A DNA stretch of 64,000 nt from an uncultured virus (IMG/VR IMGVR_UViG_3300037313_002214) (Duplodnaviria > Heunggongvirae > Uroviricota > Caudoviricetes), in the IMG/VR virus record IMGVR_UViG_3300037313_002214, one strand, 5' to 3'. The translations under genes were made by a program, and so were the position numbers. Every line of letters begins with the position of its first letter. Positions within the stretch are counted from its first letter, which is position 1. Under the pieces are notes generated by a model. The model was not told the DNA's origin and did not search any database. It was given only the letters and a program-made list of their open reading frames with translations. This document shows positions 12,940 to 45,192 of this stretch, piece by piece.

Positions 12940-13398
12940 ATGGCTTTAACAGGCAAACAGCGAGCCTTCGCCGATGCCGTGTTGGCCGGGTTCTCCAATA
13001 AGGAGGCGGCGATTCGCGCCGGATACAGCGAAAAAACGGCATCAGCTGCCGGGTCCAGGCTTGTTAAAGAGCCGCCGGTAAAAAGTTACATCGATAGCAA
13101 GAGGAAGCCATCTGCAAGTGCCGGCAAGTCTCTGCCGCCTTCAGGGGTGCCCGGCGGTTCGGACGAAGTCAATTTCGATATCCCGCATACCGACGATCCG
13201 ATCAAGTTCCTCACCAACATCATGAACGAGCCGGCTGCGGATATCCGTTATCGGATCGATGCCGCAAAGGCTATGTTGCCGTTCAAGCATCAGAAATTAG
13301 GCGAGGGCGGCAAGAAGGATGCGCAGGCCGACGCGGCGAAGAAAGCCGCTAACAAATTCGGTACGCCGGCGGCGCCTGGGCTCAAGCGCGTGAAGTAA
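12940..13398 (+). CDS. terS: Terminase small subunit
   Basis: LTGKQRAFA...AAIRAGYSEKTA...GSRL; position. Confidence 0.85.
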   Translation: MALTGKQRAFADAVLAGFSNKEAAIRAGYSEKTASAAGSRLVKEPPVKSYIDSKRKPSASAGKSLPPSGVPGGSDEVNFDIPHTDDPIKFLTNIMNEPAADIRYRIDAAKAMLPFKHQKLGEGGKKDAQADAAKKAANKFGTPAAPGLKRVK

Positions 13399-13408
13399 AG
13401 GAGTAAAA

Positions 13409-15102: not shown

Positions 15103-16395
15103 ATGGAACTATTCGATGCGCTGGCTGCTACCGCGCACTGGCGGCATGCGCCTTCGCGTTCGGAAGAGTCGAAGGTGTCGAACCAAGCGCAATACGGCCC
15201 AGATGTAATGGAGGCCTTCGGAATCGCGCCGTCCGGTACGACAGTGTCGGCGACGTCCGCGATGCGTGTGTCGGCGGTCGCTGCGTGCGTGGCGAAAATC
15301 GCCGGCGCAATCGTCAGCATGCCGATCCACGAGTACGCGCTGGACGGCGGCGAGATTCCCTCCCGGCTGCCGCGCAGCGACTTGTGGTATCTGCTCAACG
15401 AGCAGCCCAGCCCGCAGTACACCGCCGCGTCGATGTGGGAGGGTGTCAGTATGGCGCAGCTTCTGCGCGGCGATGCCTACGCACTGCTGCGCTGGCGGAT
15501 GAATGGCACGATTCGCGAGATCTTGCCACTGCCGTGGGGTAGCGTCTCACCGATTCGCTCTCCGGTTGAAGGCGTGCGCTACTACGTCAATTTGCCTTAT
15601 CACGGCATCTCGACTTGGTTTGATCCCTCCGACATCCTCCACTTTCCTGGCCTGGGCTTCGACGACAACGTAATGCGGTCGATGTCGGTAATCCAGTTCG
15701 GCGCCCGTTCGGCGATCGGCAACGCCCTTGCGATGGACGAATACAGCGGCAAGTTTTTCGAGGGCGGCGCGCACCCGTCGATCATCCTGCAGGCCTCGGC
15801 AAAGATGAGCGACACGCAGATCGGCCAGATGCAAGCGGCGTTTGCAAGCAGGTATGCCGGCCTGGCGAATGCTCACCGCCTGCCCCTCGTACTGACCGAA
15901 GGTATCACGGCGAAAGAGCTGAGCTTGTCAGCCGAGGATGCTCAGTTGCTCGAGGCCCGCAAGTTCCAGGTCATGGACATCGCCCGAGCGTTCGGCGTCC
16001 CTGGCTTCATGATCAACGAGAGTACCGGATCGACGTCCTGGGGTTCTGGTCTGGAGACGAACGGTAAAGCCTTCGTCCAGTACACCCTGCAGACGTGGCT
16101 TCGCAAAATCGAGCAGGAGCTAAACCGAAAGCTCTACCCACGAAATAACGGCCGATTTCTCGAGTTCAACCGCGAGGCGCTATACGAAACCGACCTCAAG
16201 GCACAGGGCGAGTACTCGCGATCTGCCGTTGGCGGGCCGGGCTCTGGCGATGGGTGGATGACAGTGAATGAAATCCGGCGCCGGCAACGCATGCCGCCCG
16301 TGCCGGGTGGAGACGAAATCTACCGCGCCCCACGCGATCAATCCCAACCCGGAAGCAAAGCACCCAATGAACAAGATCCTTCAGCTGTATCGTGA
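15103..16395 (+). CDS. HK97-family portal protein
   Basis: LLRGDAYA, IARAFGVP, MTVNEIR motifs. Confidence 0.95.
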   Translation: MELFDALAATAHWRHAPSRSEESKVSNQAQYGPDVMEAFGIAPSGTTVSATSAMRVSAVAACVAKIAGAIVSMPIHEYALDGGEIPSRLPRSDLWYLLNEQPSPQYTAASMWEGVSMAQLLRGDAYALLRWRMNGTIREILPLPWGSVSPIRSPVEGVRYYVNLPYHGISTWFDPSDILHFPGLGFDDNVMRSMSVIQFGARSAIGNALAMDEYSGKFFEGGAHPSIILQASAKMSDTQIGQMQAAFASRYAGLANAHRLPLVLTEGITAKELSLSAEDAQLLEARKFQVMDIARAFGVPGFMINESTGSTSWGSGLETNGKAFVQYTLQTWLRKIEQELNRKLYPRNNGRFLEFNREALYETDLKAQGEYSRSAVGGPGSGDGWMTVNEIRRRQRMPPVPGGDEIYRAPRDQSQPGSKAPNEQDPSAVS

Positions 16396-19793: not shown

Positions 19794-20268
19794 CCAGGCG
19801 ATCATCGGTGGTCGTGAGCTTGACGCGTTCCTCCAGCAGCTTCCGGTAAAGGTGGAGCGCAACATTCTGCGCGCGGCGATGCGGGCCGGCGCGAACGTCT
19901 TTAAGGCTGCAGCCAAAGAAGCCGTCCCGGTCGACGATGGCGACTTGAAGGCCAGCATTCGTGTCACGACCAGAACAAAGAACGGCACGGTTTATGCCTC
20001 GCTCAAGGCCGGCGGGAAAAAAGCCCCGCATTGGCACTGGGTCGAGTTCGGAACCGCTGCGCACAAGATCAGGGCCAAGCCGAACCATGCTCTTTCGTTT
20101 GGTGGCGTCACGGTGCACGAGGTAGATCACCCAGGTGCGAAGCCAAAGCCGTTTATGCGGCCAGCGTTCGACTCCGCAGCTGCTGCAGCAGTTGCTGCTG
20201 CGGCTGCGAAGATACGTGAGCGCCTTACGAAAGAGGGTATTAACACACCCGCTCCGGAGGATGGATGA
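19786..20268 (+). CDS. HK97 gp10-family protein
   Basis: PVDDGDLKASI, VEFGT, PFMRPAFD. Confidence 0.9.
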   Translation: MDDQAIIGGRELDAFLQQLPVKVERNILRAAMRAGANVFKAAAKEAVPVDDGDLKASIRVTTRTKNGTVYASLKAGGKKAPHWHWVEFGTAAHKIRAKPNHALSFGGVTVHEVDHPGAKPKPFMRPAFDSAAAAAVAAAAAKIRERLTKEGINTPAPEDG

Positions 20269-20666
20269 CGGCGAAGATTATCCGCGCACTGCTTGTCGGT
20301 GCCACGGAAATTACCTCGGATGTGCCGGTAGATCGTATCGTTGCTGGCACCGTTAAGGCGGGTACGCCGCTGCCAGCCTTGGGAATTACCGAGATAGGCG
20401 GCGCCCCAGTCGGCTCAATGGACGCCCAGGCCGAGTTCTCGATTGTGACTGAGAGGGTGCAGGTTACAGCGATGTGCAAGACGTATCCAGAGGTAAAGGC
20501 ATTGCTCAAGTTGGTTCGGCGTGCCTGCAACTTCCAGCGCGGCACGATAGCGGGCGAAAACGTCGTCAGCATTGTGCGCGATACGGTTGGCCCGGATCTT
20601 GATGATCCAGCCGGCAACAGCTTCCAAAGCATTGACTTCAAAGTCACGTACTACGAACAGAACTAG
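20265..20666 (+). CDS. Tail completion/terminator protein
   Basis: Position and size; LPALGITEI, RVQVT. Confidence 0.7.
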   Translation: MTAKIIRALLVGATEITSDVPVDRIVAGTVKAGTPLPALGITEIGGAPVGSMDAQAEFSIVTERVQVTAMCKTYPEVKALLKLVRRACNFQRGTIAGENVVSIVRDTVGPDLDDPAGNSFQSIDFKVTYYEQN

Positions 20667-20688
20667 CAGCATAAACATCATCAACCCG

Positions 20689-20720
20689 AGCCCGCACAGC
20701 TTCCGCTTGCGGGCTTTTTT
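20689..20720 (+). terminator. Rho-independent terminator
   Basis: AGCCCGCA...TGCGGGCT followed by T run. Confidence 0.7.
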
Positions 20721-20740
20721 CATTCGCAAAAGGAACAGAC

Positions 20741-21961
20741 ATGGGCACTGGCTCGGGCGTATATAAGCAGGTAACGTACAAAGTCGAAACCACCTATGGT
20801 ACGGCGCCGGGCGCCGCGTCGGCGCAGTCGTTGCGTCGTGTGACGTCGTCCCTGGACTTGACCAAGGACACCTATCAATCGAACGAGATCCGCCCTGACT
20901 TCCAGGTCGCGGACTTCCGTCACGGCCTGCGTAAGGTCGGCGGGTCCATCAGTGGTGAACTGTCGGCGAAGACGTACGGCGACTTCATCGCAGCCGCCCT
21001 CAAAAAGGATTTCGTTGCCGGAGTTAGCGTGGCCAGCGCCTCCATTACGGTGGGCGGCACGGCAGGAGCATGGACGCTCACGCGTGCAGCCGGCTCGTGG
21101 CTGACTGATGGTGTCAAGTTGGGCGACGTGGTGCGCCTGACCGCTGGTGCGTTCAATGCGAGTAACCTGAACAAGAACATCCAGGTTACCGCCATTACCG
21201 CGACGGTCCTGACCGGTATCGTGCTGAACGGATCGAGCCTGACGGCGGAGGGGCCTATCGCGAGCGCAACGCTCACCGTCTACGGTAAAAAAACGATGGT
21301 CCCGCAGACCGGTCATACGGACAAGTCCTTCTCGATCGAGCACTGGCATCCGGACGTCGGCGCGACTGGCGCAAGCGACCTTTTCACCGGCTGCAAGGTT
21401 TCGAAGGTGACGTTCACGCTGCCGGCTACAGGCATGGCGACCGTGGCTGTCGAGTTTACGGGTAGGGACGCGACGCCAGGCACGGCCCAATACTTCACGT
21501 CGCCAACGGCGGTGACGGTCACGGGCACGATGGCGGCTGTGAACGGTGTTGTGAAAGTAGGTGCCGCTACCGGCGGCACCATCACCAGCGCGAGCATCGA
21601 GATCTCGTGCGCACAGTCGAGTGAGCCGGGCATCGGCTCGAACGTCGCGGACCAAGTGGCTACCGGCCGCGTCATCGTTACCGGCCAAGTGACTGCGAAG
21701 TTCGATTCGACCGCGCTGCGTGACGCCTTCTACAACGAGACCGAGATCAGCGCATACCTCGCCTTCACGGCCGACAACACCGCCGCGTCCGACTTTATCG
21801 CGTTCAGCATGAACCGGATCAAGGTGAACGGCGCGTCGAAGGACGATGGCGAAAAGATCCTGATCCAGACGATCCCGTTCCAGGCGCTGCTGAACACCGA
21901 TGGCGGCGCGACTCAGCCCGAGGATCTGACGACCATCAGCGTGCAGGACTCAGCTTACTGA
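20741..21961 (+). CDS. Major tail tube protein
   Basis: SNEIRPDFQVADFRHG..VGGSISGELS, SFSIE; position. Confidence 0.85.
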   Translation: MGTGSGVYKQVTYKVETTYGTAPGAASAQSLRRVTSSLDLTKDTYQSNEIRPDFQVADFRHGLRKVGGSISGELSAKTYGDFIAAALKKDFVAGVSVASASITVGGTAGAWTLTRAAGSWLTDGVKLGDVVRLTAGAFNASNLNKNIQVTAITATVLTGIVLNGSSLTAEGPIASATLTVYGKKTMVPQTGHTDKSFSIEHWHPDVGATGASDLFTGCKVSKVTFTLPATGMATVAVEFTGRDATPGTAQYFTSPTAVTVTGTMAAVNGVVKVGAATGGTITSASIEISCAQSSEPGIGSNVADQVATGRVIVTGQVTAKFDSTALRDAFYNETEISAYLAFTADNTAASDFIAFSMNRIKVNGASKDDGEKILIQTIPFQALLNTDGGATQPEDLTTISVQDSAY

Positions 21962-22072
21962 TCCATTTCGCCGCAGTAGCGGCAACCAAGGCACCGACCG
22001 GCTGCCGTCGCCTTTCGCGGGCGCGGCGGCCGGCACGGGCAATACTTCAACCTCTCCGCGAAAGAGAAAACA

Positions 22073-22522
22073 ATGAACGCAACCGCACAACCCTCCGATC
22101 TGCTGACCAAACTGGTGGCCTCCCTGGACATCGACGCATTTGACGACGTGCCGACAGGTCGTCTGGTTCTCGTGAACCCGAAAACGAAGGAGCCTACCAG
22201 CACGTACATCGAACTGGCCAGCCCGGAGCACGAGTCGCGCAAACGCATCGACCTGGCGCGCACCCGCAAACTACGCGCCGAGTTCTCCGCCACCGGAAAG
22301 ATGCCGTCGTCCGATCCGCTGGAGGACATGGAGGACGAGCTCGACTATCTGGTCGCATCGGTGTTGGGCTGGAACGTCACCCGCGGCAGTCAGCCCGTCG
22401 AGTGCACGTCGACCAACGTGCGCGCGCTGCTGTCCGACCCGACGAAGCAATGGCTGCGCACCCAGGTCCGCGCCGGCATCAACAAGACCGAGCTTTTTAT
22501 CGCCGACTCCGCGAAAGCCTGA
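22073..22522 (+). CDS. Tail assembly chaperone (gpG-like)
   Basis: Between tail tube and tape measure genes; ends in a T-rich slippery tract. Confidence 0.75.
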   Translation: MNATAQPSDLLTKLVASLDIDAFDDVPTGRLVLVNPKTKEPTSTYIELASPEHESRKRIDLARTRKLRAEFSATGKMPSSDPLEDMEDELDYLVASVLGWNVTRGSQPVECTSTNVRALLSDPTKQWLRTQVRAGINKTELFIADSAKA

Positions 22523-22845
22523 CGGAGTGCTGCCGCGCCGAGTACGAGCTGTCGGCGCGGCTCGGTGACGGCGCAACGCTACGCACCCATTTGCAACGCG
22601 CAGCGAAGAACACCGGTGAGCGAGATCCGCGGCTTAACATCCAATGGCCGCGGCTCGGCCGGGTACTCTGGGACGCCTTCCGTGGTATCGGTCGCTCAAT
22701 GACGATGAATGGGCCCGGGCCGATCACGCCGCAGGACATCTTGGCGTATCAAACACTTTACAGCGTGACGTTCACGGCGTGGGAATTGGAGGTGATCGAA
22801 GCCTTCGATGCGATCGCGCTGGAGGCGATGCACAAGAAGGAGTGA
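22494..22845 (+). CDS. Tail assembly chaperone frameshift extension (gpT-like, -1 frame)
   Basis: Overlapping -1 frame ORF (GPGPITPQDILAY...WELEVIEAFD) with no good start of its own; CTTTTTAT at the overlap. Confidence 0.7.
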
Positions 22846-22915
22846 CGGGGCGCGAAATCAGCACCCCATCTAGCGTGGATGGTGGCGGTGCGTTCCTACC
22901 CAGGCTTTGCGACCT

Positions 22916-23182
22916 TCAGCCGGCCTTTTTCTTCGCATCCGCCGCACCGGCTAATCGTTGCGCGCGCATATTCCTGATGACCGAAAGCGCGCCCTCTAAG
23001 AATAGCTTTTCGGTGTCGGTAAAGCCTTCTTCGGTCGCAAGTGAGACTTCGAGGCGAGCGACAATTTCCGCGTTCATCGAGCGATTGTTCAGCTTGGCGG
23101 ACTCGGCGATGCGGTCGCGCATCCCCTCGGGGAGGCGGACGACGAACTGCTCTGCAGTCCGGCTTGGTGGTTTTGTACTCAT
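22916..23182 (-). CDS. Arc/Mnt-family ribbon-helix-helix repressor
   Basis: [33 protein letters not shown]. Confidence 0.9.
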
Positions 23183-23195
23183 TGCCGCAACGTAC

Positions 23196-23249
23196 TAGCA
23201 AAGTGCGATATTTTCAATAATATGTAGTTGCGATCATCGCAAAGTGCGA
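23196..23249. promoter_or_regulatory. Putative Arc/Mnt operator pair in a divergent promoter
   Basis: GCAAAGTGCGA at 23198-23208 and 23239-23249 (TCGCA-aag-TGCGA palindrome); TATAGT follows. Confidence 0.55.
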
Positions 23250-23288
23250 GTATAGTGCAGGACATTGACACAGTGAAAGGAGGGCGAC

Positions 23289-23453
23289 ATGTCTCAGGTC
23301 ACGGCGCCGGTTCAGATTCAAATCCGAACGAGCGCTGCAAATAAAGACTGGCTGAAGCGAGCGGCCGACGCTCAAGAGCGATCGGTGAACTGGCTCATCC
23401 ACAAGATGTTTACCGATGCGCGTCTCGCTGAAGAGGCAAAGCAGAGTGCGTAG
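23289..23453 (+). CDS. Small Arc-like ribbon-helix-helix protein
   Basis: 54 aa, VQIQIRTSAANKDWLKRAADAQERSVNWLI; strong AGGAGG RBS; not in the ORF track. Confidence 0.75.
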   Translation: MSQVTAPVQIQIRTSAANKDWLKRAADAQERSVNWLIHKMFTDARLAEEAKQSA

Positions 23454-23531
23454 CGGGAAAGAAAAAGCCCTGATCGGCTTGGCGGCAGGATCAGGGCTCT
23501 TGGTGAATCCACAGATGAATGAGGAATCGGA

Positions 23532-23726
23532 ATGAAGACTATCACAAGTGACAACGGCGCGCAATCGAATGATGGCCTGAGCGCGCAACAGCGTGAACTC
23601 CTGGTCAACTTCAGCAACATGAGCAAGACGGCCCGTGACACGTTTTTCGCTATGTCGCGAGAGTTCGCACGGATGCTGCCGCACCACCGTCCGCAACTGA
23701 AGTTGGTCGCGGGAGGCGCAGCATGA
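23532..23726 (+). CDS. Small helical protein, similar to 51451-51648
   Basis: GAGG RBS; LSAQQRELLVNFSNMSKTAR. Confidence 0.65.
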   Translation: MKTITSDNGAQSNDGLSAQQRELLVNFSNMSKTARDTFFAMSREFARMLPHHRPQLKLVAGGAA

Positions 23727-24451
23727 ACGACATGATCACTATTGGCGGCATCGAATTGGCTCCGATCGAGTATCGCGGCCAGCGCGTGATGACGCTGGCT
23801 ATGATGGACGCGGTGCATCGTCGCCCGGAAGATACGGCTCGCCGGACTTTCAATAAGCATCGGGCTCGGCTGGTTGAAGGGGAAGATTACCACGAGGTGA
23901 CTGCGGACGAAATTCGTACGCAGTCGCTCGGCGAAGCATTCGCCCCTCGAACGCCGAAAGGCACGCTTCTGACAGAAACTGGCTATTCGATGCTGGTCAA
24001 AAGCTTCACCGACGACCTGGCATGGGATGTGCAGCGCCAGTTGGTAAAGTCGTATTTTGGCAAACAAGGAGGATTTGACCAGCTTGCTATGCTCCCGCCA
24101 GAGCAGCGCGCACTGGTGCAATTGATGTGCGAGAACGCCGAAATCAAGGCTCGCCAGACGCAAATAGAGGTGAAGCAGAGTGAGCAGGCTGAAGCTATCA
24201 AGCGTATCGAGGTCAAGCAGTCTGCCTTCGAAAACGGACATTCGTTCTTCACCGCTGTTGCCTTCTGCGCGCTGCGTGAGATCAAGCTGTCGATGCGGGA
24301 CCTGCAGCGCCTGGGCAGGAAGGCCGGTGCGATCAGTCGTAAGAAAGACATCCCGATCGATAAGGTCCGCGACGTCCGGTATGGCATGGTCAACTCGTAC
24401 CACGAGGAGACGTTGACTCAAGCCCTCAACGAAATTCATGGGGGTATGTGA
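23723..24451 (+). CDS. ORF6N-domain phage antirepressor-like protein
   Basis: IEYRGQRVMTL..MD.VH, EGEDY, LLTETGYSMLVKSFTDDLAWDVQRQLVKSYF. Confidence 0.85.
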   Translation: MNDMITIGGIELAPIEYRGQRVMTLAMMDAVHRRPEDTARRTFNKHRARLVEGEDYHEVTADEIRTQSLGEAFAPRTPKGTLLTETGYSMLVKSFTDDLAWDVQRQLVKSYFGKQGGFDQLAMLPPEQRALVQLMCENAEIKARQTQIEVKQSEQAEAIKRIEVKQSAFENGHSFFTAVAFCALREIKLSMRDLQRLGRKAGAISRKKDIPIDKVRDVRYGMVNSYHEETLTQALNEIHGGM

Positions 24452-25020
24452 TGGAAGTCTTAAAACTGAAGTTGATCGGCACCTCTCCGCTGATGATGCA
24501 CAGCGACCGGTTGGCGAATCCACTGCTGCCCGAGACAAAGGCGCATAAGTCGCTGACCGCGAAGCGCAAGAAGACCGATGAGGACCATCTGGCGATCGCG
24601 CGGTCCGAATTTATAAGTGGGCTGTATTACAGCGAGTCGGCCGGCGTGTACGTGCCAGGTCAAAATCTCGACGCAACATTTTTGGCCGGCGCCAAGTTGC
24701 AGAAGCTCGGCACAGCGTGGAAGCGAGGGGCGCTGGTCGTCACCGACCGTGTGAAATTGTTGTATGACGGCCCGCGCACACCGGAGGCGCTGTGGGAGGA
24801 CACGCGATTCGTCGACTGCCGCGGCGTCAAGGTCGGCACTGCAAAAGTGATGCGCTACCGGCCGGTGTTCATGGAGTGGGCTGCCGAACTAGAGTTGGCG
24901 TTCAACCCTGAAATCATGAATGAGGGTGAAGTCAAGAAAGCTATTGCAGATGCTGGTGCTCTGATCGGTGTTTGTGAGTATCGCCCACGTTTCGGCCGAT
25001 TTCAGGTGGCCTATGGATGA
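24448..25020 (+). CDS. Stand-alone Cas7/RAMP-like RNA-binding protein (Vipr-like)
   Basis: N-terminal strand LKLIGTSPLMMH, VYVPGQNL, C-terminal Gly-rich loop IGVCEYRPRFGRFQV; adjacent pentamer arrays. Confidence 0.7.
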   Translation: MMEVLKLKLIGTSPLMMHSDRLANPLLPETKAHKSLTAKRKKTDEDHLAIARSEFISGLYYSESAGVYVPGQNLDATFLAGAKLQKLGTAWKRGALVVTDRVKLLYDGPRTPEALWEDTRFVDCRGVKVGTAKVMRYRPVFMEWAAELELAFNPEIMNEGEVKKAIADAGALIGVCEYRPRFGRFQVAYG

Positions 25021-25480
25021 CGACGACAAAATGTCGCTACTCCCGGAGTGGCGCCAAGCTGTAAGGGACTTCCTCGCAGCCGGCTTCAAAGAGGGCGATG
25101 TGGTTTCGCACTCGTGGCTTGAAGAGCGCTTCGGCATGAAGAAGCTCGAGGATGATAGGCCACTGTTGCCGGTCGACTGGAATGCGCGCCAGTTTGAATG
25201 GCTTCGAAACATCGAGGCATTTCGAGCTGAACTGCTCGAGCAGCATCAGATTTTTTTGAGCAGCGTATTCGGCGAGGGGTACCGATTGGTGCCGCCGCGC
25301 GAGCAAACTGCGATCGCGCAAGAGCGGTTCGAGCGCGAGGCTAAGCGGTCTTATCGCAAGGCAGCTAACACGCTGAAGAACGTGCGAATTGGTGAGTTGA
25401 CCGAGTCTGAGAGGAAGGAAAATCTGGATGCGATCGCGCGCATTGCGATGCTGCGCGGCTTCCATAGGTCGATTGAGTAG
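25013..25480 (+). CDS. Accessory protein of the RAMP-like cassette
   Basis: Overlaps the RAMP gene stop; LSSVFGEGYRLVPP resembles a wHTH wing, followed by a coiled region. Confidence 0.7.
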   Translation: MDDDDKMSLLPEWRQAVRDFLAAGFKEGDVVSHSWLEERFGMKKLEDDRPLLPVDWNARQFEWLRNIEAFRAELLEQHQIFLSSVFGEGYRLVPPREQTAIAQERFEREAKRSYRKAANTLKNVRIGELTESERKENLDAIARIAMLRGFHRSIE

Positions 25481-25494
25481 GATGCCGTAACGGC

Positions 25495-25844
25495 CAGCGT
25501 CCCGCTCGCGGGGCGCTGTTCGATGCGAAAGCATCATGCGGCGGGCCTTAGCTCGGTTTGCTAAGGTCTGGCATGGTTAGGTCCGCTGAGGCTAGGTAGG
25601 CTGGGTTATGGGCTGACAACAGCGTCTAGCGCCTTCTAACGAGGGCGCTATTCGGTGCGGTACGCTGCGCTACGGTGTGTCACGGCAAGACGTGGTAAGC
25701 CGGGCCGCGGTAAGGCATGGGCTGACAACAGCAGCCAGCATCTTCAATGAGGGTGCTGGTTGATGCGGTAAGCATCGATGGCATGGTATGGTGGGCTGAG
25801 CAATGGCGAGGCATGGCCGGGTCTGGTCGACTGCGGCGAGATAG
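25495..25844 (+). ncRNA. Three tandem hairpin plus (GGY-NN)n pentamer arrays; putative guide RNAs
   Basis: Hairpins 25495-25518, 25627-25650, 25735-25759; 5-nt periodic tracts 25540-25608, 25654-25718, 25780-25844; exact 16-mer ATGGGCTGACAACAGC at 25608-25623 and 25717-25732. Confidence 0.8.
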
Positions 25845-25848
25845 TAGT

Positions 25849-25880
25849 GCACGGGAGCCCCTAATGGGGGCTTTTCGTGC
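25849..25880 (+). terminator. Hairpin/terminator closing the array
   Basis: GCACGGGAGCCCC-taat-GGGGGCTTTTCGTGC followed by TTT. Confidence 0.6.
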
Positions 25881-25927
25881 TTTGCATTTCACTGGTGTAA
25901 TATTTCCCCTCTCAACTAGGAGGGGGT

Positions 25928-26290
25928 ATGAGCTCAATCACGATTCATGCTGGAGACTTCCCAAAAGGGAAGGCATCGTTAGGGTTCGGTGTAATTACTT
26001 TCCCATGGCAACCTGGAGACGGGTTCAGTGCTGGAAACAGCGTGGTGCTAAAAAATCATCTGGAGTCCGTTGAAATCGCGTCAGAGGAGTCGGTAAAACG
26101 GGTAGGCGGAACGCTTGGGTGGGGCATAGCAGGAGCCACATTGCTCGGGCCGGTGGGTCTGCTTGCGGGGCTACTGCTTGGGGGCAAAGGCAAAGATGTG
26201 ACATTTGTGGCTGTCTTTAAGGACGGGAAAAAGATGCTTGCCACGGCCGATGCGAAAACATACACGAAATTGCAGGCCATAGTTTTTTAG
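25928..26290 (+). CDS. Hypothetical moron protein with Gly-zipper hydrophobic segment
   Basis: AGGAGG RBS, lower GC, GWGIAGATLLGPVGLLAGLLLGG; double terminator 26308-26357. Confidence 0.7.
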   Translation: MSSITIHAGDFPKGKASLGFGVITFPWQPGDGFSAGNSVVLKNHLESVEIASEESVKRVGGTLGWGIAGATLLGPVGLLAGLLLGGKGKDVTFVAVFKDGKKMLATADAKTYTKLQAIVF

Positions 26291-26369
26291 ATTCCACTTC
26301 TCAAGTGAAGCCAGCCTTGCGCTGGCTTTTTTATTGCCACCTTCGGGTGGCATTTTTATTGGAGCTCAC

Positions 26370-29300
26370 GTGATTGTTGGCGATCTCGAAATCAGATTGC
26401 GCGCAGATATTGCTCGCCTACAAAGAGACATGGATGACGCTCGCCGGGTCGTAGGCGACGCTGCCACGGCAATGGGTCGCGCTGCCGAGATGGCCAAGAA
26501 CGCGCTGGCCGGTATTGCTAGCGCCGTAGGGCTGGCGAAAATAGCCCAGATGAGTGACGAATACTCGAAGCTCACGGCCCAACTGCGCCTCGCGACAGAT
26601 AGCACTAGTGAGTATGCTCAAGCCTATGCTGACGTCAAGCGTATCGCTAACACTTCGCAGTCGGATTTGGCCGCAACTGGCTCGCTGTACGCGTCTCTCG
26701 CTCGCGCAACAAAAGATCTAGGAACGTCGCAGAAAGGCGTAGCCGATATTACCGAAGCAGTAAATCTCGGGCTGAAGATCTCAGGCGCTGGCGCTCAGGA
26801 GTCCGCGGGTGCGATCCTGCAGCTTTCGCAGGCCTTTGCAGCAGGCGCTTTAAGAGGCGATGAGTTCAATAGCGTCGCCGAGTCCGCGCCGCGTCTGATG
26901 AAGGCGCTAGCCGACAACATCGGTGTCCCAGTGGGCGCTTTGCGTACGATGGCTGAGCAGGGAAAATTAACTGCCGACGTGGTGGCTAAGGCGCTCCCTC
27001 AGGCTCTCGTACAACTGCGTGGCGAAGCTGGGCAAATTCAAACTATCGCAGGCAGCTTCGTAGTCTTAAAGAACAGCGTGCTCGAGTTCACGGGCGTACA
27101 AGCCCAGTCGAGCGGCGCCGTGACGGTGCTTACCAGCGGCATCAACCTGCTGGCGAATAATCTTAACGTCCTGGCGGGTGCGGCAGCCACAGTCGCCGCA
27201 GTGAAGCTAGGCAATTGGCTCAACGGTACCATCTCAAGTGCGACGAGCGCCTTCACCGCCAATCGGCAGTTGGCAGCGTCCACTATTGCGACGGCCGAGG
27301 CGAATGCGACCGCAACGGCGCAGGCATCGCTGCTGGCAAATGCCCGCTTGGCTGAGGTTCGCGCTGCCACGCTGGCAGCATCCGGGGAAGTGCAGCTAGC
27401 GCTGACCACCAACGCCCTTATCCCGGCTCAAGCACGTGCGGCTGCTGCAGCTGAGGCGCACGCTGTCGCCATGGGGCAGCTCACCGTAGCGCAGCGCACC
27501 GCCGCTCTCGGCGCAACGGCAGCGTCACGGATCATTGGTGGCCTTGGCGGTCCGCTTGGAGCGCTGATCACCGTGCTCGGTCTGGCAGCGACGGCGTGGT
27601 CCTGGTACAAGGAAAAGCAAGATGAAGCGACCCGTAAAGCGCAAGAGGACGTTGGTCAATCTACCAATGAGATCGTCGACAACCTAAAGCAGCAAAACGA
27701 GCAAATGCGTCAGCGGATTCAGTTGGCGCAGCGATATGGCGATATCGATGCCGCTCAAGACAGCCCCGCGCTTCAGCGCATGGCTGAGCTGCAACAAAAG
27801 ATCAACGACTTAAAGGCCCAGGGCGCCGGCATCTCGTCTGGCGATTCGGTCGCACTCATCGACTATGAGGGACAACTGTCTGACCTCAAGAAGGTCGTCG
27901 ACCAAAATAAGGAATACAAGGCAACCTTGGAGTCGACTGGCAAGGCGGCACTCGACCTCATCACTGTCCAGCAGCAGCTCGCCGGTGTGAACCAGCAGTA
28001 TCTGGATGACCTTACGAAATTAAAGGCCGCACTTGACAAGGGGGCAATTAGCCAGGGCGAATACGTCGCCGTTGTGTCGAAGCTTGCAAAGGACACATAC
28101 ACGGGCTCGACCGCTGGCAAGTTGTTTGCGCAAAGTTTGGATGCCCAGGCGGCAGCCATTGAGCGCGCTGCAGAGGCGCAGAGCCTTCGAAACCAGCGAG
28201 ATCAGGAACATATCCAGTTCCTGAAAAGCAGCGGGCAGGTAGACGACGAGGCCACGATCAGGGCGGCAGCCGCGGCACAAGTGAAGGATCTCAACGATCA
28301 GATCACGGCGCAACAAAGGCTCATGGGTGTCGAGCGGCAGCGTCAGGTCAGCGCTGAGCAAATGGCGCAGAAGCAGGCTGAAATCAACGGTAAGGTAGCT
28401 AACTTGCGCATCCAGATCGACAACGCGCAGAAAAAGCGCGACGAGGATCTGTTCCTGCTCGAGCAGCAGCGCTATCGTCAGGCTGTTGGCAACGCGGCTG
28501 ATTTGATCGAGAGTGAGCAGGCTGAGTTGGCAAGCCTTCGGCAGCAAACCCAAGCCCAAATTGACTACAACGAACAAATCGGCCTGAGCCAAACCCAGGT
28601 GGCCGCATTGACCGCGGCGCACCTTGAAGAGGCGGCAGCGCGCAAGGATGCAGAATCCGTTACGGCTGAAGGACTCGACCTCACCGGCGAGCGCGCGCAA
28701 CGCATACGCGACGAGGCAGCGGCGATCCGTGAGCGTGCTGCAGCGGTGGTCGATGGCGCGGCAAAGCAGCAGCGCTACGATCAGTGGAAGCAGGCGATCG
28801 ATCAGTATGGCCAAGTCTTCCAGCAGGGCTTCGCCGACATGCTGAACAATGGCAACGCTGGCTGGCAGTCGTTCACGAAGTCCCTCGTGACCACGTTCAA
28901 GACGTCGGTGGTCGACCAGATCTACAAAATGTTCGCTAGGCCGATTATCGTGCAGTTGGTCGGTAGCTTCATGGGCATTAGCCCGACCGCCATCGCCGGT
29001 GAGATCGCTAGCCAGCCGAACGCATATGGTGTCACCGCGAATAGTGGCTCTGGCGTTGGAAGTGCCATCAGTGCAGCACAGGTGGCGTCGACGCTTTACA
29101 AGGCCGTTAGCGGCGGGTTCTCGGCGCTGGGTACGACTGTGGCGGATGCGGTTCAGGCGGGCATGTATCAGACTGGCATGACGACGCAAATTGCTAGCAA
29201 CGGCGCTTTCGCGACCGGGGTCGGCACTGCGGCAAGCTACGGCGCTGGTGTTCTGGGTGGCCACTACATCGGCAATGCGATCGCGGGTGACTACAGTATC

Positions 29301-31457
29301 AACCATGGCCAAGCGGTTACGAGCATCGCTTCCGTAATCGGTGCGGTAATTGGTGGACCGATTGGCGGGATCATCGGCGGTGCTGTCGGTGGCCTGATCA
29401 ACCGCGCCTTCGGACATGGCTCGACCGAGGTCCAGTCTCAAGGCCTTCAAGGTACTCTCACGGCTAGCAGCCTGGCCGGCAACAGCTATCAGAATCTGCA
29501 TCAGGGTGGCGGGTGGTTCACCAGCGATCGTAACTGGAAGGACACCAAGGCGTTCACTGAACAAATGGTGGCCCAGTTCACGCAGGGGTTGGCCGCAATC
29601 GAGTCGACATCCTCGGGCTTCGCGAAAGCGCTGGGCGTGTCTGCGGATTGGGTATCTACCTACTCGAAAGACTTCAACCTGGCACTGACAGGCGATGCGG
29701 CGAAGGACCAGCAGGCCATCACGGACTTTTTCAGCGGAATCGGTGACGAGATCGCGAAGAAGCTAGTGCCGAATCTGGACCAATTCAGCAAGACTGGCGA
29801 GACTGCATCGGCGACACTCGAGCGTCTGGCCGGCGACTTCGAAGCCACTGACCAAGTCGCGCAGCTTATCGGCAAGACGGCTGCGGAGGCATTTGGTACC
29901 GCGGGCATTGAATCGGCGAAGGCGCGCGAGCAGTTGGTTAGCCTGGCTGGCAGTGCGTCGACGCTGACGTCGCAGGCGCAATCGTACGCACAGAACTATC
30001 TGACCGATTCCGAGAAGCTGGCGCCGGTGCAGAAAGCGCTTGATGCTGCGATGGCGAGCCTTGGCCTGTCGTCGATCCAGACGCGGGATCAGTTCAAGGC
30101 AGTCGTCAACTCTCTCGATCTGACGACTGAAGCCGGCGCGAAGGAGTTCACGTCCTTGATGGCCCTTGCGGATGCGTTCGCGCAGGTGCATCCGGCTGCC
30201 AACGACGCGGCGACCGCAGTTCAGAACGCAGCCGACGCACTCCAGGCGATCAAGGACTCTGCTGGCACATTGGTTGGTGACGTCGACAGTGCGTTCTCGG
30301 TGTTGCAGAAGGTGGTCGAGCGCGAGAAGACTGCAGTCCAGACGGCTATCGACGCGCACACTGCTGCGGTGAGCAAGCTGCAAAGCCTGTCTCAGTCGCT
30401 TCACAGCACCCTGAACAGCATGATGTCGCCAGATCAGCAGGCGATGGCGCGCACGGCTGGCCAGGCGCAAATTCGGGCAGCACTGGCGATCGCGAAAGCG
30501 GGCGGGCCGCTGCCGGATGCGGACTCCCTTAAGGATGCCTTGAGCGCGGTATCGAAGACGTCGACCGACCAATTCAAAACGTATCAGGACTACCTCAAGG
30601 ATCTGTATAAAACGCAGAACGACATCGCGGCGCTGGGTCAGGTCACGGATGATCAGCTTTCGGTAGAGCAGAAAGCGCTCGCGACGGCGCAGGACCAACT
30701 GAAATCGCTTGACTCGGTGCTGACGAAAGCGCAGGACCAGATCGACGTGCTGAAGGGGCAGTCCACCACTCTGCTGTCGATCGATCAAGCGATTCAGGGT
30801 CTGTCGACGGCGATCATGGCCGCGCAGGCCAATCCTGTTGTTGCGGCCACATCGACCATCAACAAGGCTTACCAGTCGTCGCTTGGTCGTGCGCCGGATG
30901 CCGCTGGCTTGGCGTACTGGCAGCAGCAGGCCGCTGCCGGCGTGTCTCCAGGCGACATTCAGAAGGCTATTTCGACGTCTCCAGAGGCGACGCTGCAAGG
31001 CATGTACCAAACTATGTTGCATCGCTCAGCCGATGCTGCGGGTCTGAATTACTGGCTCACGCAGCTGCAACACGGCGTGTCGTGGTCGGACGTCGGTAAT
31101 GCGCTGATGAACAGTGCCGAAGCGAATGGGAAGGTTCCTGGCTTCGCGTCTGGCGGTGACTTCGGTGGCGGCTGGCGCATCGTCGGTGAGAACGGCCCGG
31201 AACTGGAGGCAACAGGACCGGCGCGCATCTTCAACGCGCAGCAAACGTCGTCGCTGATGAGTCGATTGACCAGCCCAGCGAGCAACAACGATGCGCTGCT
31301 TGTCGAGCTAAAGGCTGTTCGTCAGGAACTTGCGGACCTCCGCCAGAAGAACAGCGCTGAGAACATCGCCCAGGTGAAGCAGTTGCAAACCACAGTCGAT
31401 CTGCTCACACGAGTGATCTACGGCGGCGACTCCATCCAAACCAAAGCAGTGAGCTAA
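26370..31457 (+). CDS. Tail tape measure protein
   Basis: ~1695 aa, Ala-rich; QLSQAFAAGALRGDEFNSVAE tape motif; FASGG...VGENGPEL C-terminus; GTG start after GGAG. Confidence 0.95.
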   Translation: MIVGDLEIRLRADIARLQRDMDDARRVVGDAATAMGRAAEMAKNALAGIASAVGLAKIAQMSDEYSKLTAQLRLATDSTSEYAQAYADVKRIANTSQSDLAATGSLYASLARATKDLGTSQKGVADITEAVNLGLKISGAGAQESAGAILQLSQAFAAGALRGDEFNSVAESAPRLMKALADNIGVPVGALRTMAEQGKLTADVVAKALPQALVQLRGEAGQIQTIAGSFVVLKNSVLEFTGVQAQSSGAVTVLTSGINLLANNLNVLAGAAATVAAVKLGNWLNGTISSATSAFTANRQLAASTIATAEANATATAQASLLANARLAEVRAATLAASGEVQLALTTNALIPAQARAAAAAEAHAVAMGQLTVAQRTAALGATAASRIIGGLGGPLGALITVLGLAATAWSWYKEKQDEATRKAQEDVGQSTNEIVDNLKQQNEQMRQRIQLAQRYGDIDAAQDSPALQRMAELQQKINDLKAQGAGISSGDSVALIDYEGQLSDLKKVVDQNKEYKATLESTGKAALDLITVQQQLAGVNQQYLDDLTKLKAALDKGAISQGEYVAVVSKLAKDTYTGSTAGKLFAQSLDAQAAAIERAAEAQSLRNQRDQEHIQFLKSSGQVDDEATIRAAAAAQVKDLNDQITAQQRLMGVERQRQVSAEQMAQKQAEINGKVANLRIQIDNAQKKRDEDLFLLEQQRYRQAVGNAADLIESEQAELASLRQQTQAQIDYNEQIGLSQTQVAALTAAHLEEAAARKDAESVTAEGLDLTGERAQRIRDEAAAIRERAAAVVDGAAKQQRYDQWKQAIDQYGQVFQQGFADMLNNGNAGWQSFTKSLVTTFKTSVVDQIYKMFARPIIVQLVGSFMGISPTAIAGEIASQPNAYGVTANSGSGVGSAISAAQVASTLYKAVSGGFSALGTTVADAVQAGMYQTGMTTQIASNGAFATGVGTAASYGAGVLGGHYIGNAIAGDYSINHGQAVTSIASVIGAVIGGPIGGIIGGAVGGLINRAFGHGSTEVQSQGLQGTLTASSLAGNSYQNLHQGGGWFTSDRNWKDTKAFTEQMVAQFTQGLAAIESTSSGFAKALGVSADWVSTYSKDFNLALTGDAAKDQQAITDFFSGIGDEIAKKLVPNLDQFSKTGETASATLERLAGDFEATDQVAQLIGKTAAEAFGTAGIESAKAREQLVSLAGSASTLTSQAQSYAQNYLTDSEKLAPVQKALDAAMASLGLSSIQTRDQFKAVVNSLDLTTEAGAKEFTSLMALADAFAQVHPAANDAATAVQNAADALQAIKDSAGTLVGDVDSAFSVLQKVVEREKTAVQTAIDAHTAAVSKLQSLSQSLHSTLNSMMSPDQQAMARTAGQAQIRAALAIAKAGGPLPDADSLKDALSAVSKTSTDQFKTYQDYLKDLYKTQNDIAALGQVTDDQLSVEQKALATAQDQLKSLDSVLTKAQDQIDVLKGQSTTLLSIDQAIQGLSTAIMAAQANPVVAATSTINKAYQSSLGRAPDAAGLAYWQQQAAAGVSPGDIQKAISTSPEATLQGMYQTMLHRSADAAGLNYWLTQLQHGVSWSDVGNALMNSAEANGKVPGFASGGDFGGGWRIVGENGPELEATGPARIFNAQQTSSLMSRLTSPASNNDALLVELKAVRQELADLRQKNSAENIAQVKQLQTTVDLLTRVIYGGDSIQTKAVS

Positions 31458-38606: not shown

Positions 38607-39857
38607 TTACGCTACCGCGTTTTCCCGAATAGAGGATACGCTTGCGACTGCGGCCGGCCTGGCGCAGTAGTCGGCCCATACCTGCATGAGTATCTTGCGC
38701 TTCTCGATCAGGTCGCCGCGGCGGTAGGCGGCCTCAACCTTGTCCGGCAGGCTGTGGGCGAGCGCATGTTCGCAGACCTCGCGCGGAAACGAGTTCGCCG
38801 CCGACTCCGCACACCAATCCCGGAACGTGGATCGGAAGCCGTGCACTGTGATGTCTTTGCGGCCCATTCGATGCAGCACCGCTATCATGCTGACGTTTGA
38901 AATCGTCGCTCCGTCACCGTCGCCCTGGCGCTGCCCAGGGAATACGTAGTCGCCAATCTTGGGCGATGATTTCAGTAGATCTATTGCGGTGGTCGACAAC
39001 GGTACGCGGTGTTCGCGCCCACCCTTCATCCTTTCGGCCGGAACTGTCCATATTGCGGTGTCCAGGTCGATCTCATCCCAGCGCGCGCCACGTACCTCAC
39101 CAGACCTTGCCGCCGTTAAGATGCAAAACTCCAGAGCCCTTGCCGACGATCCCTTCCGCTGGCGCAGGTCGGCCATAAAGGCGCCGATTTCTTGCCAGGG
39201 AAGGGCGGCATGGTGTTCGACCTGAACGACACGACTCGGGTCCGCCAATAAGTGGTCTAGATGGCCGCGCCACCGGGCCGGGTTTTCGCCGCCGCGATAT
39301 TTGCTGACTGTGGCCCAATCAAGGATGCTTTCCATCCGGCCCCGAATTCGCATCGCGGTCTTCGTCTTCGATTCCCATATTGGCTGCAGGATTTTGACCA
39401 CGAGAGGCGTGTCGATCGATGCCACGGGCAGAGTCCCTATTACGGGACTGACATACGTCGCAATCGTCGTCTCCCATTGGCCGGTATGCCTTGCATTCTT
39501 CCAGCCACTACGATGGGCCGCAATGTATGCCTTTGCGCAGTCATCGAACGTCATGGCCTTCGCGCGTTCAAGTGCGGCGCTCAGCTGCGCAGCCTTGCGC
39601 ATCTCCAGAGGATCTCCGCCGTCCAGGAGCGTCGCGCGGCAATCCCTGGCCTTCTCGCGAGCCTTCCCAAGCGTCACTGTGTGCACTGGTCCGAGCCCCA
39701 TCTGGCGCTCTTTGCCTCCGCGCACATACCGAAAAATCCAACTCTTTGAGCCTGTCTTGGATACCTGCAGATAAAGTCCCGCTCCATCGCCATAGTAGCC
39801 GGGTTTGTTCGCCCTATTGACCGCCATTGCCGTCAACTTCTCAACCGTCCGCGCCAC
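38607..39857 (-). CDS. int: P4-like prophage integrase with arm-binding domain
   Basis: DGAGLYLQV..GSKSWIFRY, ARSGEVRG, HGFRSTFRDW, LAH...AY; GTG start after GGAGG. Confidence 0.95.
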   Translation of the reverse strand: MARTVEKLTAMAVNRANKPGYYGDGAGLYLQVSKTGSKSWIFRYVRGGKERQMGLGPVHTVTLGKAREKARDCRATLLDGGDPLEMRKAAQLSAALERAKAMTFDDCAKAYIAAHRSGWKNARHTGQWETTIATYVSPVIGTLPVASIDTPLVVKILQPIWESKTKTAMRIRGRMESILDWATVSKYRGGENPARWRGHLDHLLADPSRVVQVEHHAALPWQEIGAFMADLRQRKGSSARALEFCILTAARSGEVRGARWDEIDLDTAIWTVPAERMKGGREHRVPLSTTAIDLLKSSPKIGDYVFPGQRQGDGDGATISNVSMIAVLHRMGRKDITVHGFRSTFRDWCAESAANSFPREVCEHALAHSLPDKVEAAYRRGDLIEKRKILMQVWADYCARPAAVASVSSIRENAVA

Positions 39858-39862
39858 TTTCC

Positions 39863-40104
39863 TACCTCCATTTCTACCCACATCGATACGCTGGATTTTA
39901 ACGCACTTTGCTGAACTATCGCGGACTGTACGATCCAGATTTTTCTAGTAGGATCATGGGGTTAGCTTACGTTGGTGAACTCTGACGAACTCATCCATAA
40001 CGGAGCTACGATCCGGACAACCTGTTCCGCTTCAACCACAATATAAAGGGCGTATAGAAAAATATTGATGTGGTTGATGCGCGTACCCCCATTTCAACCC
40101 CCAT
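39863..40104. other. Putative intact attP with arm-type repeats and a host-gene 3' end
   Basis: TACCTCCATTTCTACCCACAT (39863-39883) and TACCCCCATTTCAACCCCCAT (40084-40104) flank RSYDPDNLFRFNHNIKGV* (40001-40057). Confidence 0.65.
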
Positions 40105-40105
40105 G

Positions 40106-40309
40106 TCACGACAGGGACTTTTTTACGCCTATTTGGAGTTTTCTTTGCCATGCCGCGATGTCTTCTTCGTCCCAGGCGACCATGCGCGGGCCGATCTGGA
40201 TTGGCTCCGGGAACGTGCCGGCCTTCATCTTGGCGTAGATTGTTGTCTTGCCAAAGCCGACGATTTTTTTAACATCTGGCAGGCGAAGAAATTGTTTTGG
40301 GGTGCTCAT
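40106..40309 (-). CDS. AlpA-family excisionase/regulator
   Basis: FLRLPDV...GFGKTTIY..MKAGTFPEPIQIGPRMVAW. Confidence 0.9.
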   Translation of the reverse strand: MSTPKQFLRLPDVKKIVGFGKTTIYAKMKAGTFPEPIQIGPRMVAWDEEDIAAWQRKLQIGVKKSLS

Positions 40310-40356
40310 TCGGGCGCTCCTAATCACATAATTTTCTGAGACGTTCTGCACTGTTT

Positions 40357-40965
40357 TTACCCCTCTTGTTTGGTGTGAGCTTCGATAGCGGCGACCGGCG
40401 TGCAGAAGCTGGCCGACCATCCGTATGTCTTGCCGTCGATTTCGACGTCGAGTGCCCCATTTCCATGTGCGCAAGTGATTACTGCGTCCTCGAACCGCTC
40501 TGGGCTTATCCACTGTCGTACTGTCGCGCCTTTAACGTAACCGAGCGCGCGCCAATCAGGCCGCTCTGCATCTTTCTCCACCGTTCCCGCTGCGGGAGCC
40601 GCGCAGTTGCTCGAAAAATTCGATGAACTGTTTGTTTGGGCCGCGCGCAGCCGCTCGACTTCGGCGATCAGTTCAAGCACAGCAGCGGGGTTGGCTGCGG
40701 CGATGAATTGCGCGTCACGCTTAGCGAGTTCGTCCCACGCATAGTGTTCCTCGTCGCTGTATTCCTCGTGGATTTCGCTGTCGTCACGGTTAAGGCTATC
40801 CATCAGCGGTCGCCCCTTTCCGTCGGTGACGACATACGCCGTGTAGCCATAGCCGCCGTCTTCGTCTGTGCCATAGTGACCCTCAGACTTCACGGTATCC
40901 ACTTCCCACGGGCCAGGAGTCGCCGCCAGTGCCAGCGCCTTCAGCTTTTCGATGTCCACGGTCAT
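40357..40965 (-). CDS. Ead/Ea22-like early protein
   Basis: LKALALAATPGPW, DAQFIAAANPAAVLELIAEVE. Confidence 0.75.
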   Translation of the reverse strand: MTVDIEKLKALALAATPGPWEVDTVKSEGHYGTDEDGGYGYTAYVVTDGKGRPLMDSLNRDDSEIHEEYSDEEHYAWDELAKRDAQFIAAANPAAVLELIAEVERLRAAQTNSSSNFSSNCAAPAAGTVEKDAERPDWRALGYVKGATVRQWISPERFEDAVITCAHGNGALDVEIDGKTYGWSASFCTPVAAIEAHTKQEG

Positions 40966-44040: not shown

Positions 44041-44053
44041 TGGCGGCCGGGAT

Positions 44054-44689: not shown

Positions 44690-44706
44690 GCTGAGAAATT
44701 GTTAAA

Positions 44707-45165: not shown

Positions 45166-45192
45166 GTGCGGCTCCGAAAAATAGATGAATTG

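Follow-up and report, generated by a model that had tools for sequence, protein, structure and literature searches.

A prophage VIPR guide that matches sibling tape-measure gene starts more closely than the resident one

How can a prophage keep a guide RNA that spells the start of one of its own late genes? The question is raised by a 64,000-nt stretch of DNA from an uncultured virus of the Caudoviricetes (IMG/VR record IMGVR_UViG_3300037313_002214), referred to below, at its full length, as the window. It is a prophage carrying genes for terminase, capsid, tail and integrase, and three noncoding arrays of five-base units lie upstream of its tape-measure protein (TMP) gene. The third array can be read onto the first 13 codons of that gene with five mismatches, and onto the same codons of many related phages with none. 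By its sequence, the locus is a member of the recently described VIPR (Viral Interference Programmable Repeat) family.

In the accessible passages of the first VIPR preprint (10.64898/2026.04.26.720920), a locus of this kind encodes a ~20-kDa ancestral RAMP protein (Vipr) and an accessory gene (vap), together with vrRNAs made of 9–16 YNNGG repeats and a conserved tail. The NN letters specify the target, one base being skipped after each pair, mostly at the wobble position; double-stranded DNA is bound on either strand with transcriptional repression as the outcome, and the targets found in nature belong to competing phages and satellites. The same passages place the cut-off for natural targets at an NN match of at least 80% and report no self hits at or above that value for the guides tested. 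A Vipr filament and a gapped R-loop triplex are described in the accessible part of a second preprint (10.64898/2026.04.26.720927). The available text of a third, from October 2026 (10.64898/2026.10.15.759431), reports that vrRNA-targeting vrRNAs have self match scores below their non-self scores, and argues that wobble skipping prevents synonymous escape. The three arrays of the window hold 16, 15 and 13 tandem YNNGG pentamers with conserved GGY and hypervariable NN letters. A vipr gene, one vap gene and intergenic arrays stand together in a (pro)virus, and matches to coding DNA with a 1-nt skip on the wobble position were found for vrRNA3 (26/26 in 27/53 relatives, below) and for vrRNA2 (24/26). 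The features on which the argument turns are the following.

25522–25885 (+): the three vrRNAs together
25762–25885 (+): vrRNA3 (array 3 of the first-pass annotation), with a 5′ hairpin (25762–25776), 13 pentamers (25778–25842), a terminal-type tail and a terminator hairpin
26370–26408 (+): first 13 codons of the resident TMP gene; near-cognate site of vrRNA3 (21/26), with the guide 528 nt upstream
26370–31457 (+): whole resident TMP gene, a 1695-aa open reading frame (ORF) with a Pfam TMP_3 match (E 2.8e-55)

The vrRNA3 guide and its matches at tape-measure gene starts

The resident site reads GTG ATT GTT GGC GAT CTC GAA ATC AGA TTG CGC GCA GAT, and the first-pass annotation had listed five mismatches between it and array 3, all at codon position 1. 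We rebuilt the guide from that list by searching the noncoding stretch 25450–25930 for the implied first-position string at fixed spacings. Every fifth base from 25778 gives AAAGGAGACCCGG, which is identical to the implied string and was the sole match among periods 2–11. The second bases of the vrRNA3 pentamers, TTTGATATGTGCA, agree with codon position 2 of the site in 13/13 cases, and the first bases agree with codon position 1 of the resident site in 8/13. The guide is non-contiguous: the pentamers have the form N1N2-GGY (ATGGC ATGGT ATGGT GGGCT GAGCA ATGGC GAGGC ATGGC CGGGT CTGGT CGACT GCGGC GAGAT), and their N1N2 letters are read with one skipped base as ATx ATx ATx GGx GAx ATx GAx ATx CGx CTx CGx GCx GAx, the skipped base being the wobble position of the TMP target. 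Read in this way, vrRNA3 matches the resident start at 21/26 letters, with mismatches in codons 1, 3, 6, 9 and 10, all at codon position 1; three of the five (GTG, AGA and TTG) are silent.

The NNGGY periodicity of the arrays stands well clear of the rest of the window: the arrays at 25538, 25652 and 25778 score 33–34/39, whereas the window averages 14.3 (sd 3.0) and nowhere else exceeds 27. No contiguous guide was present in the window in any of four orientations (the best other match had 16/39 mismatches), and a blastn-short search returned nothing. Searches of the window gave no tandem or CRISPR-like repeats and no tRNAs, and Rfam at the gathering threshold assigned no family to the arrays. 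Two other candidates for guide sequences were discarded: clusters of shared 6-mers proved random, and the one large repeat family of the window (44027–45324), considered as possible arrays, belongs to a diversity-generating retroelement (DGR) and leaves at least 14 non-pairing positions to the site even with G:U pairs allowed. Among other phages, the vrRNA3 guide was found only in two contigs of this same phage.

Matches in siblings were scored in a panel of 72 unique relatives, to which L008 and L040 had been added and in which identical first 240 nt were collapsed. L063 and L064 were excluded as being this phage itself, as were L087 and L089, whose tblastn match began at residue 2 and whose guessed start was not a start codon. 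In 53 of the 72, termed class relatives, the N-terminus lies within 2 residues of MIIGDMEIRLRAD. vrRNA3 matches these 53 at 26/26 in 27, 25/26 in 21, 24/26 in 3 and 23/26 in 2; the homologous starts of L003 (TMP 81% identical) and L007 both score 25/26, and a search of IMG/VR with the 26-base pattern gave 28 exact hits. The guide is identical to the family consensus over the first 13 TMP codons, and the resident, at 21 against 23–26, is the most divergent of the 54 class alleles.

The resident allele is unusual in the kind of its differences as well. ATG is the start codon in 72/72 unique relatives, so that the resident GTG is the only non-ATG among 73 alleles. It is taken as the true TMP start because the homologous genes of relatives begin at the same codon, and a GGAG motif lies five bases upstream (26361–26364). 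The 13 codons offer four synonymous first-position options (the initiator, Arg9, Leu10 and Arg11), of which the resident uses three; of the 53 class relatives, 47 have none of these, 5 have one and 1 has two. In a heuristic gene set, AGA accounts for 27/996 Arg codons (2.7%) and is the rarest of them, and TTG makes up 14.3% of Leu codons. The first-pass annotation was thus correct that the mismatches fall at codon position 1, that the guide fits sibling phages perfectly and the resident not, and that AGA is rare in this phage.

Conservation of the segment was measured in a pairwise set of 46 alleles, consisting of the resident and 45 picked relatives of the MI[IV]GD... and MVISE... classes for which 600 nt or more were available. 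Pairs of relatives differ by a mean of 1.50 NN letters in the target segment against 6.07 expected at the background rate, so that across the family the rest of the TMP gene varies about four times as much as this segment. Pairs that include the resident differ by a mean of 4.73, the largest value for any of the 46 alleles.

The 10-unit pattern of vrRNA1 had 0 exact matches, and nothing above chance was found for it in the window and in L003–L008. The 10-unit pattern of vrRNA2 had 2 exact hits in IMG/VR, and its NN letters match L167, an unrelated phage, at 24/26 in frame in a tail-tube-like gene; the open frame around this target, 157 residues long, is without a homologue in the window.

Near-self matches across related VIPR loci

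An alignment of Vipr yielded 80 loci, each taken with as much as 10 kb to the left and right of vipr, and in 74/80 of these, found with the protein, the order is vipr, vap, arrays. The 74 loci contain 168 arrays with 157 distinct NN strings (guides), 147 of them with 10 or more core units. After masking of the arrays, each of these guides was scored by its best match over 10 units in its own locus and compared with guides shuffled in unit order. A best self match of at least 16/20 was obtained for 45 guides (31%) against 6.2 for shuffled guides (about 4%), and one of at least 17/20 for 17 guides against 0.4. None of the 147 guides had a self match of 19–20/20; the maximum was 18. Of the 45 near-self hits, 33 lie within an ORF of 100 aa or more and in its wobble register, where 1/3 would be expected. 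In other loci, matches of at least 19/20 were found for 40 guides and of 20/20 for 13. For 21/41 near-self guides, the peptide encoded at the better-scoring non-self hit shares at least 6/10 residues with that of the self site, and these 21 better hits are the homologous site of a sibling.

Mismatches within the Leu and Arg codon families are distributed unevenly between the two kinds of site. Resident TTR or AGR opposite guide CT or CG outnumber the reverse by 13:3 at self sites, compared with 33:46 at non-self sites (Fisher p=0.0054), and omitting this phage leaves 10:3 against 32:46 (p=0.032). The 13:3 result rests on about 10 independent events, the collapse into events being crude, and the thresholds of the two classes differ (at least 16 for self sites, 17–19 for imperfect non-self sites). 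Taken together, the panel suggests self-avoidance across related VIPR loci. Near-self sites are common and never near-perfect, and residents favour TTR/AGR codons there, which suggests a general and directly testable rule.

Individual loci provide further observations. Near-self matches of 80–86% occur in several of them. The guide at 37440 of G002 (L015/L198) is aimed at the family of the gpJ-like gene resident beside its cassette (38796–40556); against this tail-tip gene (Pfam FNIII-A_GpJ, Phage-tail_3) it scores 18/22 in L019, 17/22 in G007 and 16/22 in its own homologue. In L211, L218, L219 and L196, the Leu of 'WELYRI' is encoded by TTG in the resident gpJ-like copy, opposite CT in the guide. 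A guide of L194 has its best self match (17/24) at 10081, within the vipr gene of its own locus, in the conserved 'TKAH..LT.KR' region. G005 (the L014 contig) is a 26-kb provirus with two vrRNA arrays near 13326–13433 and no Vipr hit; one of its guides matches all 10 core units at 15216–15254 of the same contig, antisense to the C-terminal codons of a gene, and guides of G004 and L023 match the contig too. It resembles the 'orphan vrRNA' elements that the October 2026 preprint describes, apart from its perfect match to itself. A vrRNA of L009 (array at oriented position 2211) matches positions 13447–13506 (−) of the window at 19/20 over its best 10 units, with the wobble skip, inside the 5′ part of the terminase large subunit gene (13409–15094). 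Because that guide matches its terminase gene, the phage of the window is likely to be a VIPR target itself.

Proposed protection and possible origins of the resident allele

According to the VIPR preprints, the GGY triplets of a vrRNA serve to align Vipr protomers, which present its NN dinucleotides; these pair with double-stranded DNA while every third base is skipped, and the bound complex blocks transcription. Because vrRNA3 spells the sibling consensus, the first 13 codons of this siphophage tape-measure family, a prophage that expresses it should silence the TMP gene of a sibling. In a sibling that superinfects or is co-induced, the tail genes downstream of TMP would be shut off along with it, and the five read-letter differences (units 1, 3, 6, 9 and 10) would weaken binding at the resident site and spare the prophage's own tail operon. 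Divergence of the target sequence would then be what separates self from non-self. Of the readings considered, protection of the resident allele by its five mismatches seems to us the most likely, and we favour it with a little more than even confidence; it fits the panel, since no near-perfect self matches occur across the clade. VIPR as a system is already known; what would be new is the proposed self-avoidance.

A number of observations weigh against this reading, some bearing on whether the resident site is spared and others, taken up in the next paragraph, on whether it was recoded. The resident site may still be bound, because its 21/26 match (81%) lies above the cut-off of at least 80% given in the accessible text of the first preprint. 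vrRNA3 itself could be impaired, as four of its units are imperfect and the conserved ATGGG unit is missing before its tail. In the panel, events are partly non-independent: the Leu event of the window is counted twice through context truncation, and YALFR and YTLFR are probably one site. A scan of every register of 25480–25900 against every position of the window on both strands (9.1e7 comparisons) gave 6 hits at 21, all of one alignment, and 18 at 20, so that 21/26 is the chance maximum. Were the whole match a chance resemblance between a periodic noncoding array and a gene start, that within-window score is what one would see; we nonetheless regard this as refuted, as the guide–TMP match is placed beyond chance by the relatives, which match at 25–26/26 at the homologous start codon in 48/53 class members and supply 28 exact hits to all 26 bases, rather than by the within-window score, and other guides, read by the same code, also have in-frame targets. 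If instead the resident site is still recognised, vrRNA3 might damp the prophage's own TMP and tail expression, for example by keeping late genes tight in the lysogen. The 81% match would qualify the site as a target by the preprint's cut-off, target and guide lie 528 nt apart in the same orientation, and the near-self matches of 80–86% in other loci would be in keeping with such autoregulation. It appears improbable to us, given that the guide matches dozens of other phages perfectly and its own never, that no self window of the panel exceeds 18/20 whereas 40 guides reach at least 19/20 elsewhere, and that the accessible preprint passages report no self hits at or above 80% and self scores below non-self scores.

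The first-pass annotation went further and proposed that the phage had recoded its own copy, so that selection against self-silencing, acting after the cassette or guide arrived, would have fixed first-position changes that were synonymous where possible (ATG to GTG, CGN to AGA, CTN to TTG). In favour of such active recoding, three of four synonymous options are used where 53 relatives use 0–2, one of them through the rarest Arg codon; the guide is the family consensus and the resident the outlier; and residents across the clade hold the rare codon family at near-self sites. The changes may instead have preceded the guide: the resident allele may already have drifted, by neutral divergence, and a consensus guide could persist only in such a phage, with nothing recoded. 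Comparison with TMP starts that have no cassette nearby (no vipr or vap by tblastn and no array, score ≤29, within ±4 kb of the gene) bears on both. GTT (Val) stands at codon 3 in 20/53 class relatives, CTT (Leu) at codon 6 in 4/53, AGG at codon 9 in 2/53, including the closest relative L065, and TTG or TTA at codon 10 in 3/53. Each of these four mismatch states thus exists as standing variation without the cassette, Val3 and Leu6 being common natural variants; GTG at codon 1 and AGA at codon 9 occur in 0/53. Background divergence is high as well, since elsewhere in the N-terminal region the resident differs from its nearest relatives at position 1 of 20% of codons, and conserved Arg and Leu codons have switched family in 12/35 cases against L065 and 9/37 against L066 (24–34% of conserved sites). 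With divergence of this order, four to five position-1 changes in 13 codons are unexceptional, and the five lie within the gene's own divergence (P=0.26 against L065, 0.10 against L066 and L118). AGR at codon 9 may predate the cassette, because L065 has AGG there and a different insert at the same junction, and the changes cannot be ordered in time, the nearest relative being only 81% identical. The cassette moreover is mobile: G004 carries a related one at the same junction beside a TMP with an unrelated N-terminus. Filtering explains the panel asymmetry as well as recoding does, and the case for recoding comes from one lineage, examined after the fact. Points that filtering leaves less well explained are the conservation of the target segment in the family (1.50 against 6.07) with the resident as its extreme allele, and a GTG that is unique among 73 starts. 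On balance we hold filtering to be possible, at well below even confidence, and active recoding to be somewhat more doubtful still. The proposal is partly supported, by the resident's extreme divergence and its use of the synonymous options, with GTG and AGA absent from cassette-free relatives, and by like Leu/Arg family differences at near-self sites of other VIPR loci; an excess over background divergence was not seen.

A closer TMP relative than L065 (81% protein identity) was not found among GTDB contigs, metagenome contigs or genomes of the order of G012. The GTDB contigs gave 1 locus at 59%, the metagenome contigs 1 locus already in the set, and 401 genomes of that order 6 matches, the best at 59%; the whole genome of G012 has no Vipr hit. 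The nearest record, G001, lacks this region. In public runs, one X12 contig stops matching the window at 26370 and then continues unlike it, and contigs of X12–X14 are without 26370–26408; no RNA run was listed for this DNA.

An extended version of the recoding argument, which we put forward only tentatively and think unlikely in full, is that guide and mismatched target form a linked pair 528 nt apart: the cassette would silence the TMP gene of every sibling with the consensus start, and the resident would have been recoded through the only synonymous routes left, the initiator and the six-fold Arg and Leu codons. Were it so, a sibling would gain immunity only by inheriting the cassette and the allele together, a drive-like arrangement. 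Were it general, VIPR targets would not be proof against synonymous escape, and 'self' would be marked by rare-family Leu and Arg codons. As far as the accessible passages of the VIPR literature go, silent escape by an initiator swap or by six-fold Arg and Leu codons is not in print, and no occurrence of 'six-fold' or 'arginine' was found in the available text of the October preprint (10.64898/2026.10.15.759431). If silent changes suffice for escape, the argument that wobble skipping shuts off synonymous escape needs qualifying. VIPR was described only in 2026, and with one guide, dozens of perfect targets and a resident near-target with five defined differences, the locus is a natural test case for its self/non-self discrimination and mismatch tolerance.

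The cassette, comparable systems and the rest of the window

The arrays belong to a 3.5-kb insertion between the chaperone and TMP genes, which in relatives abut. Its components and flanks are as follows.

22073–22522 (+): tail assembly chaperone G (phrog_313, E 2.1e-7); in relatives the chaperone gene abuts the TMP start
22402–22845 (+): ORF overlapping chaperone G, read as a probable frameshift extension, GT
22850–26344: insertion (moron) of 3.5 kb between chaperone and TMP, with regulators, VIPR genes, vrRNA arrays and a small membrane-protein gene
22916–23182 (−) and 23289–23453 (+): divergent ribbon-helix-helix/Arc-like regulator pair (PHROG Arc-like hits, E down to 7.6e-20)
23723–24451 (+): ORF6N/anti-repressor-like gene (Pfam ORF6N, E 7.9e-14; PHROG anti-repressor)
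24448–25020 (+): vipr, encoding a 190-aa RAMP-like protein, the predicted guide-binding subunit (phrog_4652, E 6e-73)
24968–25480 (+): vap, the accessory gene (phrog_5926, E 7.7e-40, residues 26–167)
25522–25651 (+): vrRNA1, with 5′ hairpin GATGC-GAAA-GCATC (25522–25535), 16 pentamers (25538–25617) and tail ATGGGCTGACAACAGC plus hairpin; periodicity score 34/39
25652–25760 (+): vrRNA2, with 15 pentamers (25652–25726) and tail ATGGGCTGACAACAGC plus hairpin
25928–26290 (+): glycine-zipper membrane protein of 120 aa, function unknown (phrog_12025, E 8.8e-24), between the vrRNAs and TMP
26307–26352 (+): two tandem terminator-like hairpins at the end of the insertion, just 5′ of the GGAG

By blastn, positions 20000–22849 and those from 26345/26371 onward are collinear with L066, L118 and L067, in which the two blocks lie 8–36 nt apart. 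The insert of L065 at the chaperone–TMP junction is 2.1 kb long. Because G004 and L065 carry another cassette or insert there, the cassette is mobile and the junction a hot spot.

Within the cassette, promoter-like sites lie between the two regulators (23228–23256 on the plus strand and 23277–23249 on the minus strand), and homologues of the Arc-like regulators are found upstream of vipr in six other array loci. The ORF6N gene is not conserved in other VIPR loci, tblastn finding a homologue only in this phage's own contigs. The vipr and vap products gave no Pfam or PADLOC hit and fall in PHROGs of unknown function. Vipr has 934 homologous clusters, all unnamed; sources among the matches listed were Burkholderia, Cupriavidus, Pandoraea, Pseudomonas and a Xanthomonadaceae bacterium. 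In a Foldseek search of the PDB with its AlphaFold2 model (mean pLDDT 72.7), the ten top-ranked chains were all of the type III Cas7 family (Csm/Cmr, e.g. Csm3/Cmr4) and later rows included type VII Cas7, these matches being weak (best E 1.8e-3, none ≤0.001, TM 0.2–0.46). The longest ORF of vap starts at GTG 24968, and ATG 25013, which overlaps the vipr stop, is the likelier start.

A scan for the 16-mer ATGGGCTGACAACAGC uncovered 12 further phage loci with such arrays, in which it follows the arrays together with a hairpin. In 11/12 of these, vipr homologues 65–89% identical adjoin the arrays, and a vap homologue follows vipr in the same 11. Small hairpins precede both vrRNA1 and vrRNA3. The tail of vrRNA3 is common to the last vrRNA of G004, G005, G006 and L023, and in it the usual ATGGG unit is replaced by GAGA. 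A homologue of the gene at 25928–26290 accompanies VIPR in G004 and lies upstream of the TMP gene in L068 without VIPR; it is a moron gene separate from VIPR.

The closest described system is the VIPR type II/Pseudomonas fulva prophage clade, the window's clade and type being assigned from its architecture. With VIPR the locus shares a ~20-kDa protein, here with a weak fold likeness to RAMPs, and an accessory gene, downstream arrays of about 100-nt RNAs with a conserved tail, carriage on a prophage, aim at other phages and self matches below non-self ones. It differs in that its guides and those of related loci hit late tail genes (the TMP start, a tail-tube-like gene, a gpJ-like gene) and not mainly lysis–lysogeny regulators, that a terminase gene is hit by another phage's guide, and that its own-genome site has an 81% NN match, whereas the accessible text of the first preprint gives none at or above 80% among the guides tested.

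The likeness of VIPR to class 1 CRISPR-Cas filaments (Cas7/Csm3/Cmr4) lies in a RAMP protein that polymerises on a guide RNA with bases periodically displaced, in guide arrays with conserved handles, and in the best fold matches of the window protein, which are Csm3, Cmr4 and type VII Cas7. The guide of the window, unlike theirs, is gapped (2 read, 3 hidden), as is the target (2 read, 1 skipped), and the window has no repeat–spacer array, no cas1/cas2 or other cas gene (Pfam) and no PADLOC hit. CRISPR systems include flank-based self/non-self checks, which would not apply without a protospacer-adjacent motif (PAM). In the accessible preprint text, no PAM is reported for VIPR. Prophage superinfection-exclusion or interference morons are similar in being self-contained cassettes with their own regulators and terminators, placed in a late operon and directed against related phages. 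They differ from VIPR, whose specificity lies in a programmable RNA and not in a protein; here the resident would be protected by a sequence difference at the target and not by an immunity protein.

Elsewhere in the window, positions 42722–45801 (−) hold the DGR, from which the reverse transcriptase has apparently been lost. Its template repeat (44027–44175) is AAC-rich, and its two variable repeats are the C-termini of Lcl_C/C-type-lectin-like ORFs (44707–45165 and 45193–45801). The element includes bAvd (44336–44689) and an RT-15 RNA (Rfam RF03018, 163.6 bits) at 44161–44355; of the reverse transcriptase, only about 100 N-terminal residues are left up to a stop at 43725, and an unrelated ORF of 336 aa comes next. 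The noncoding stretch 48040–48560, between early genes and an HNH-like ORF, is purine-rich and low in GC (GC 0.52, GC skew +0.18), repeats the motif GGTGAGACT and has no Rfam hit. Two tyrosine integrase genes and an insertion-sequence-type transposase (rve) lie at 3029–5770 and 38607–39881, with the structural genes preceding the second integrase, and the window is perhaps a permuted prophage or a composite of parts of two elements.

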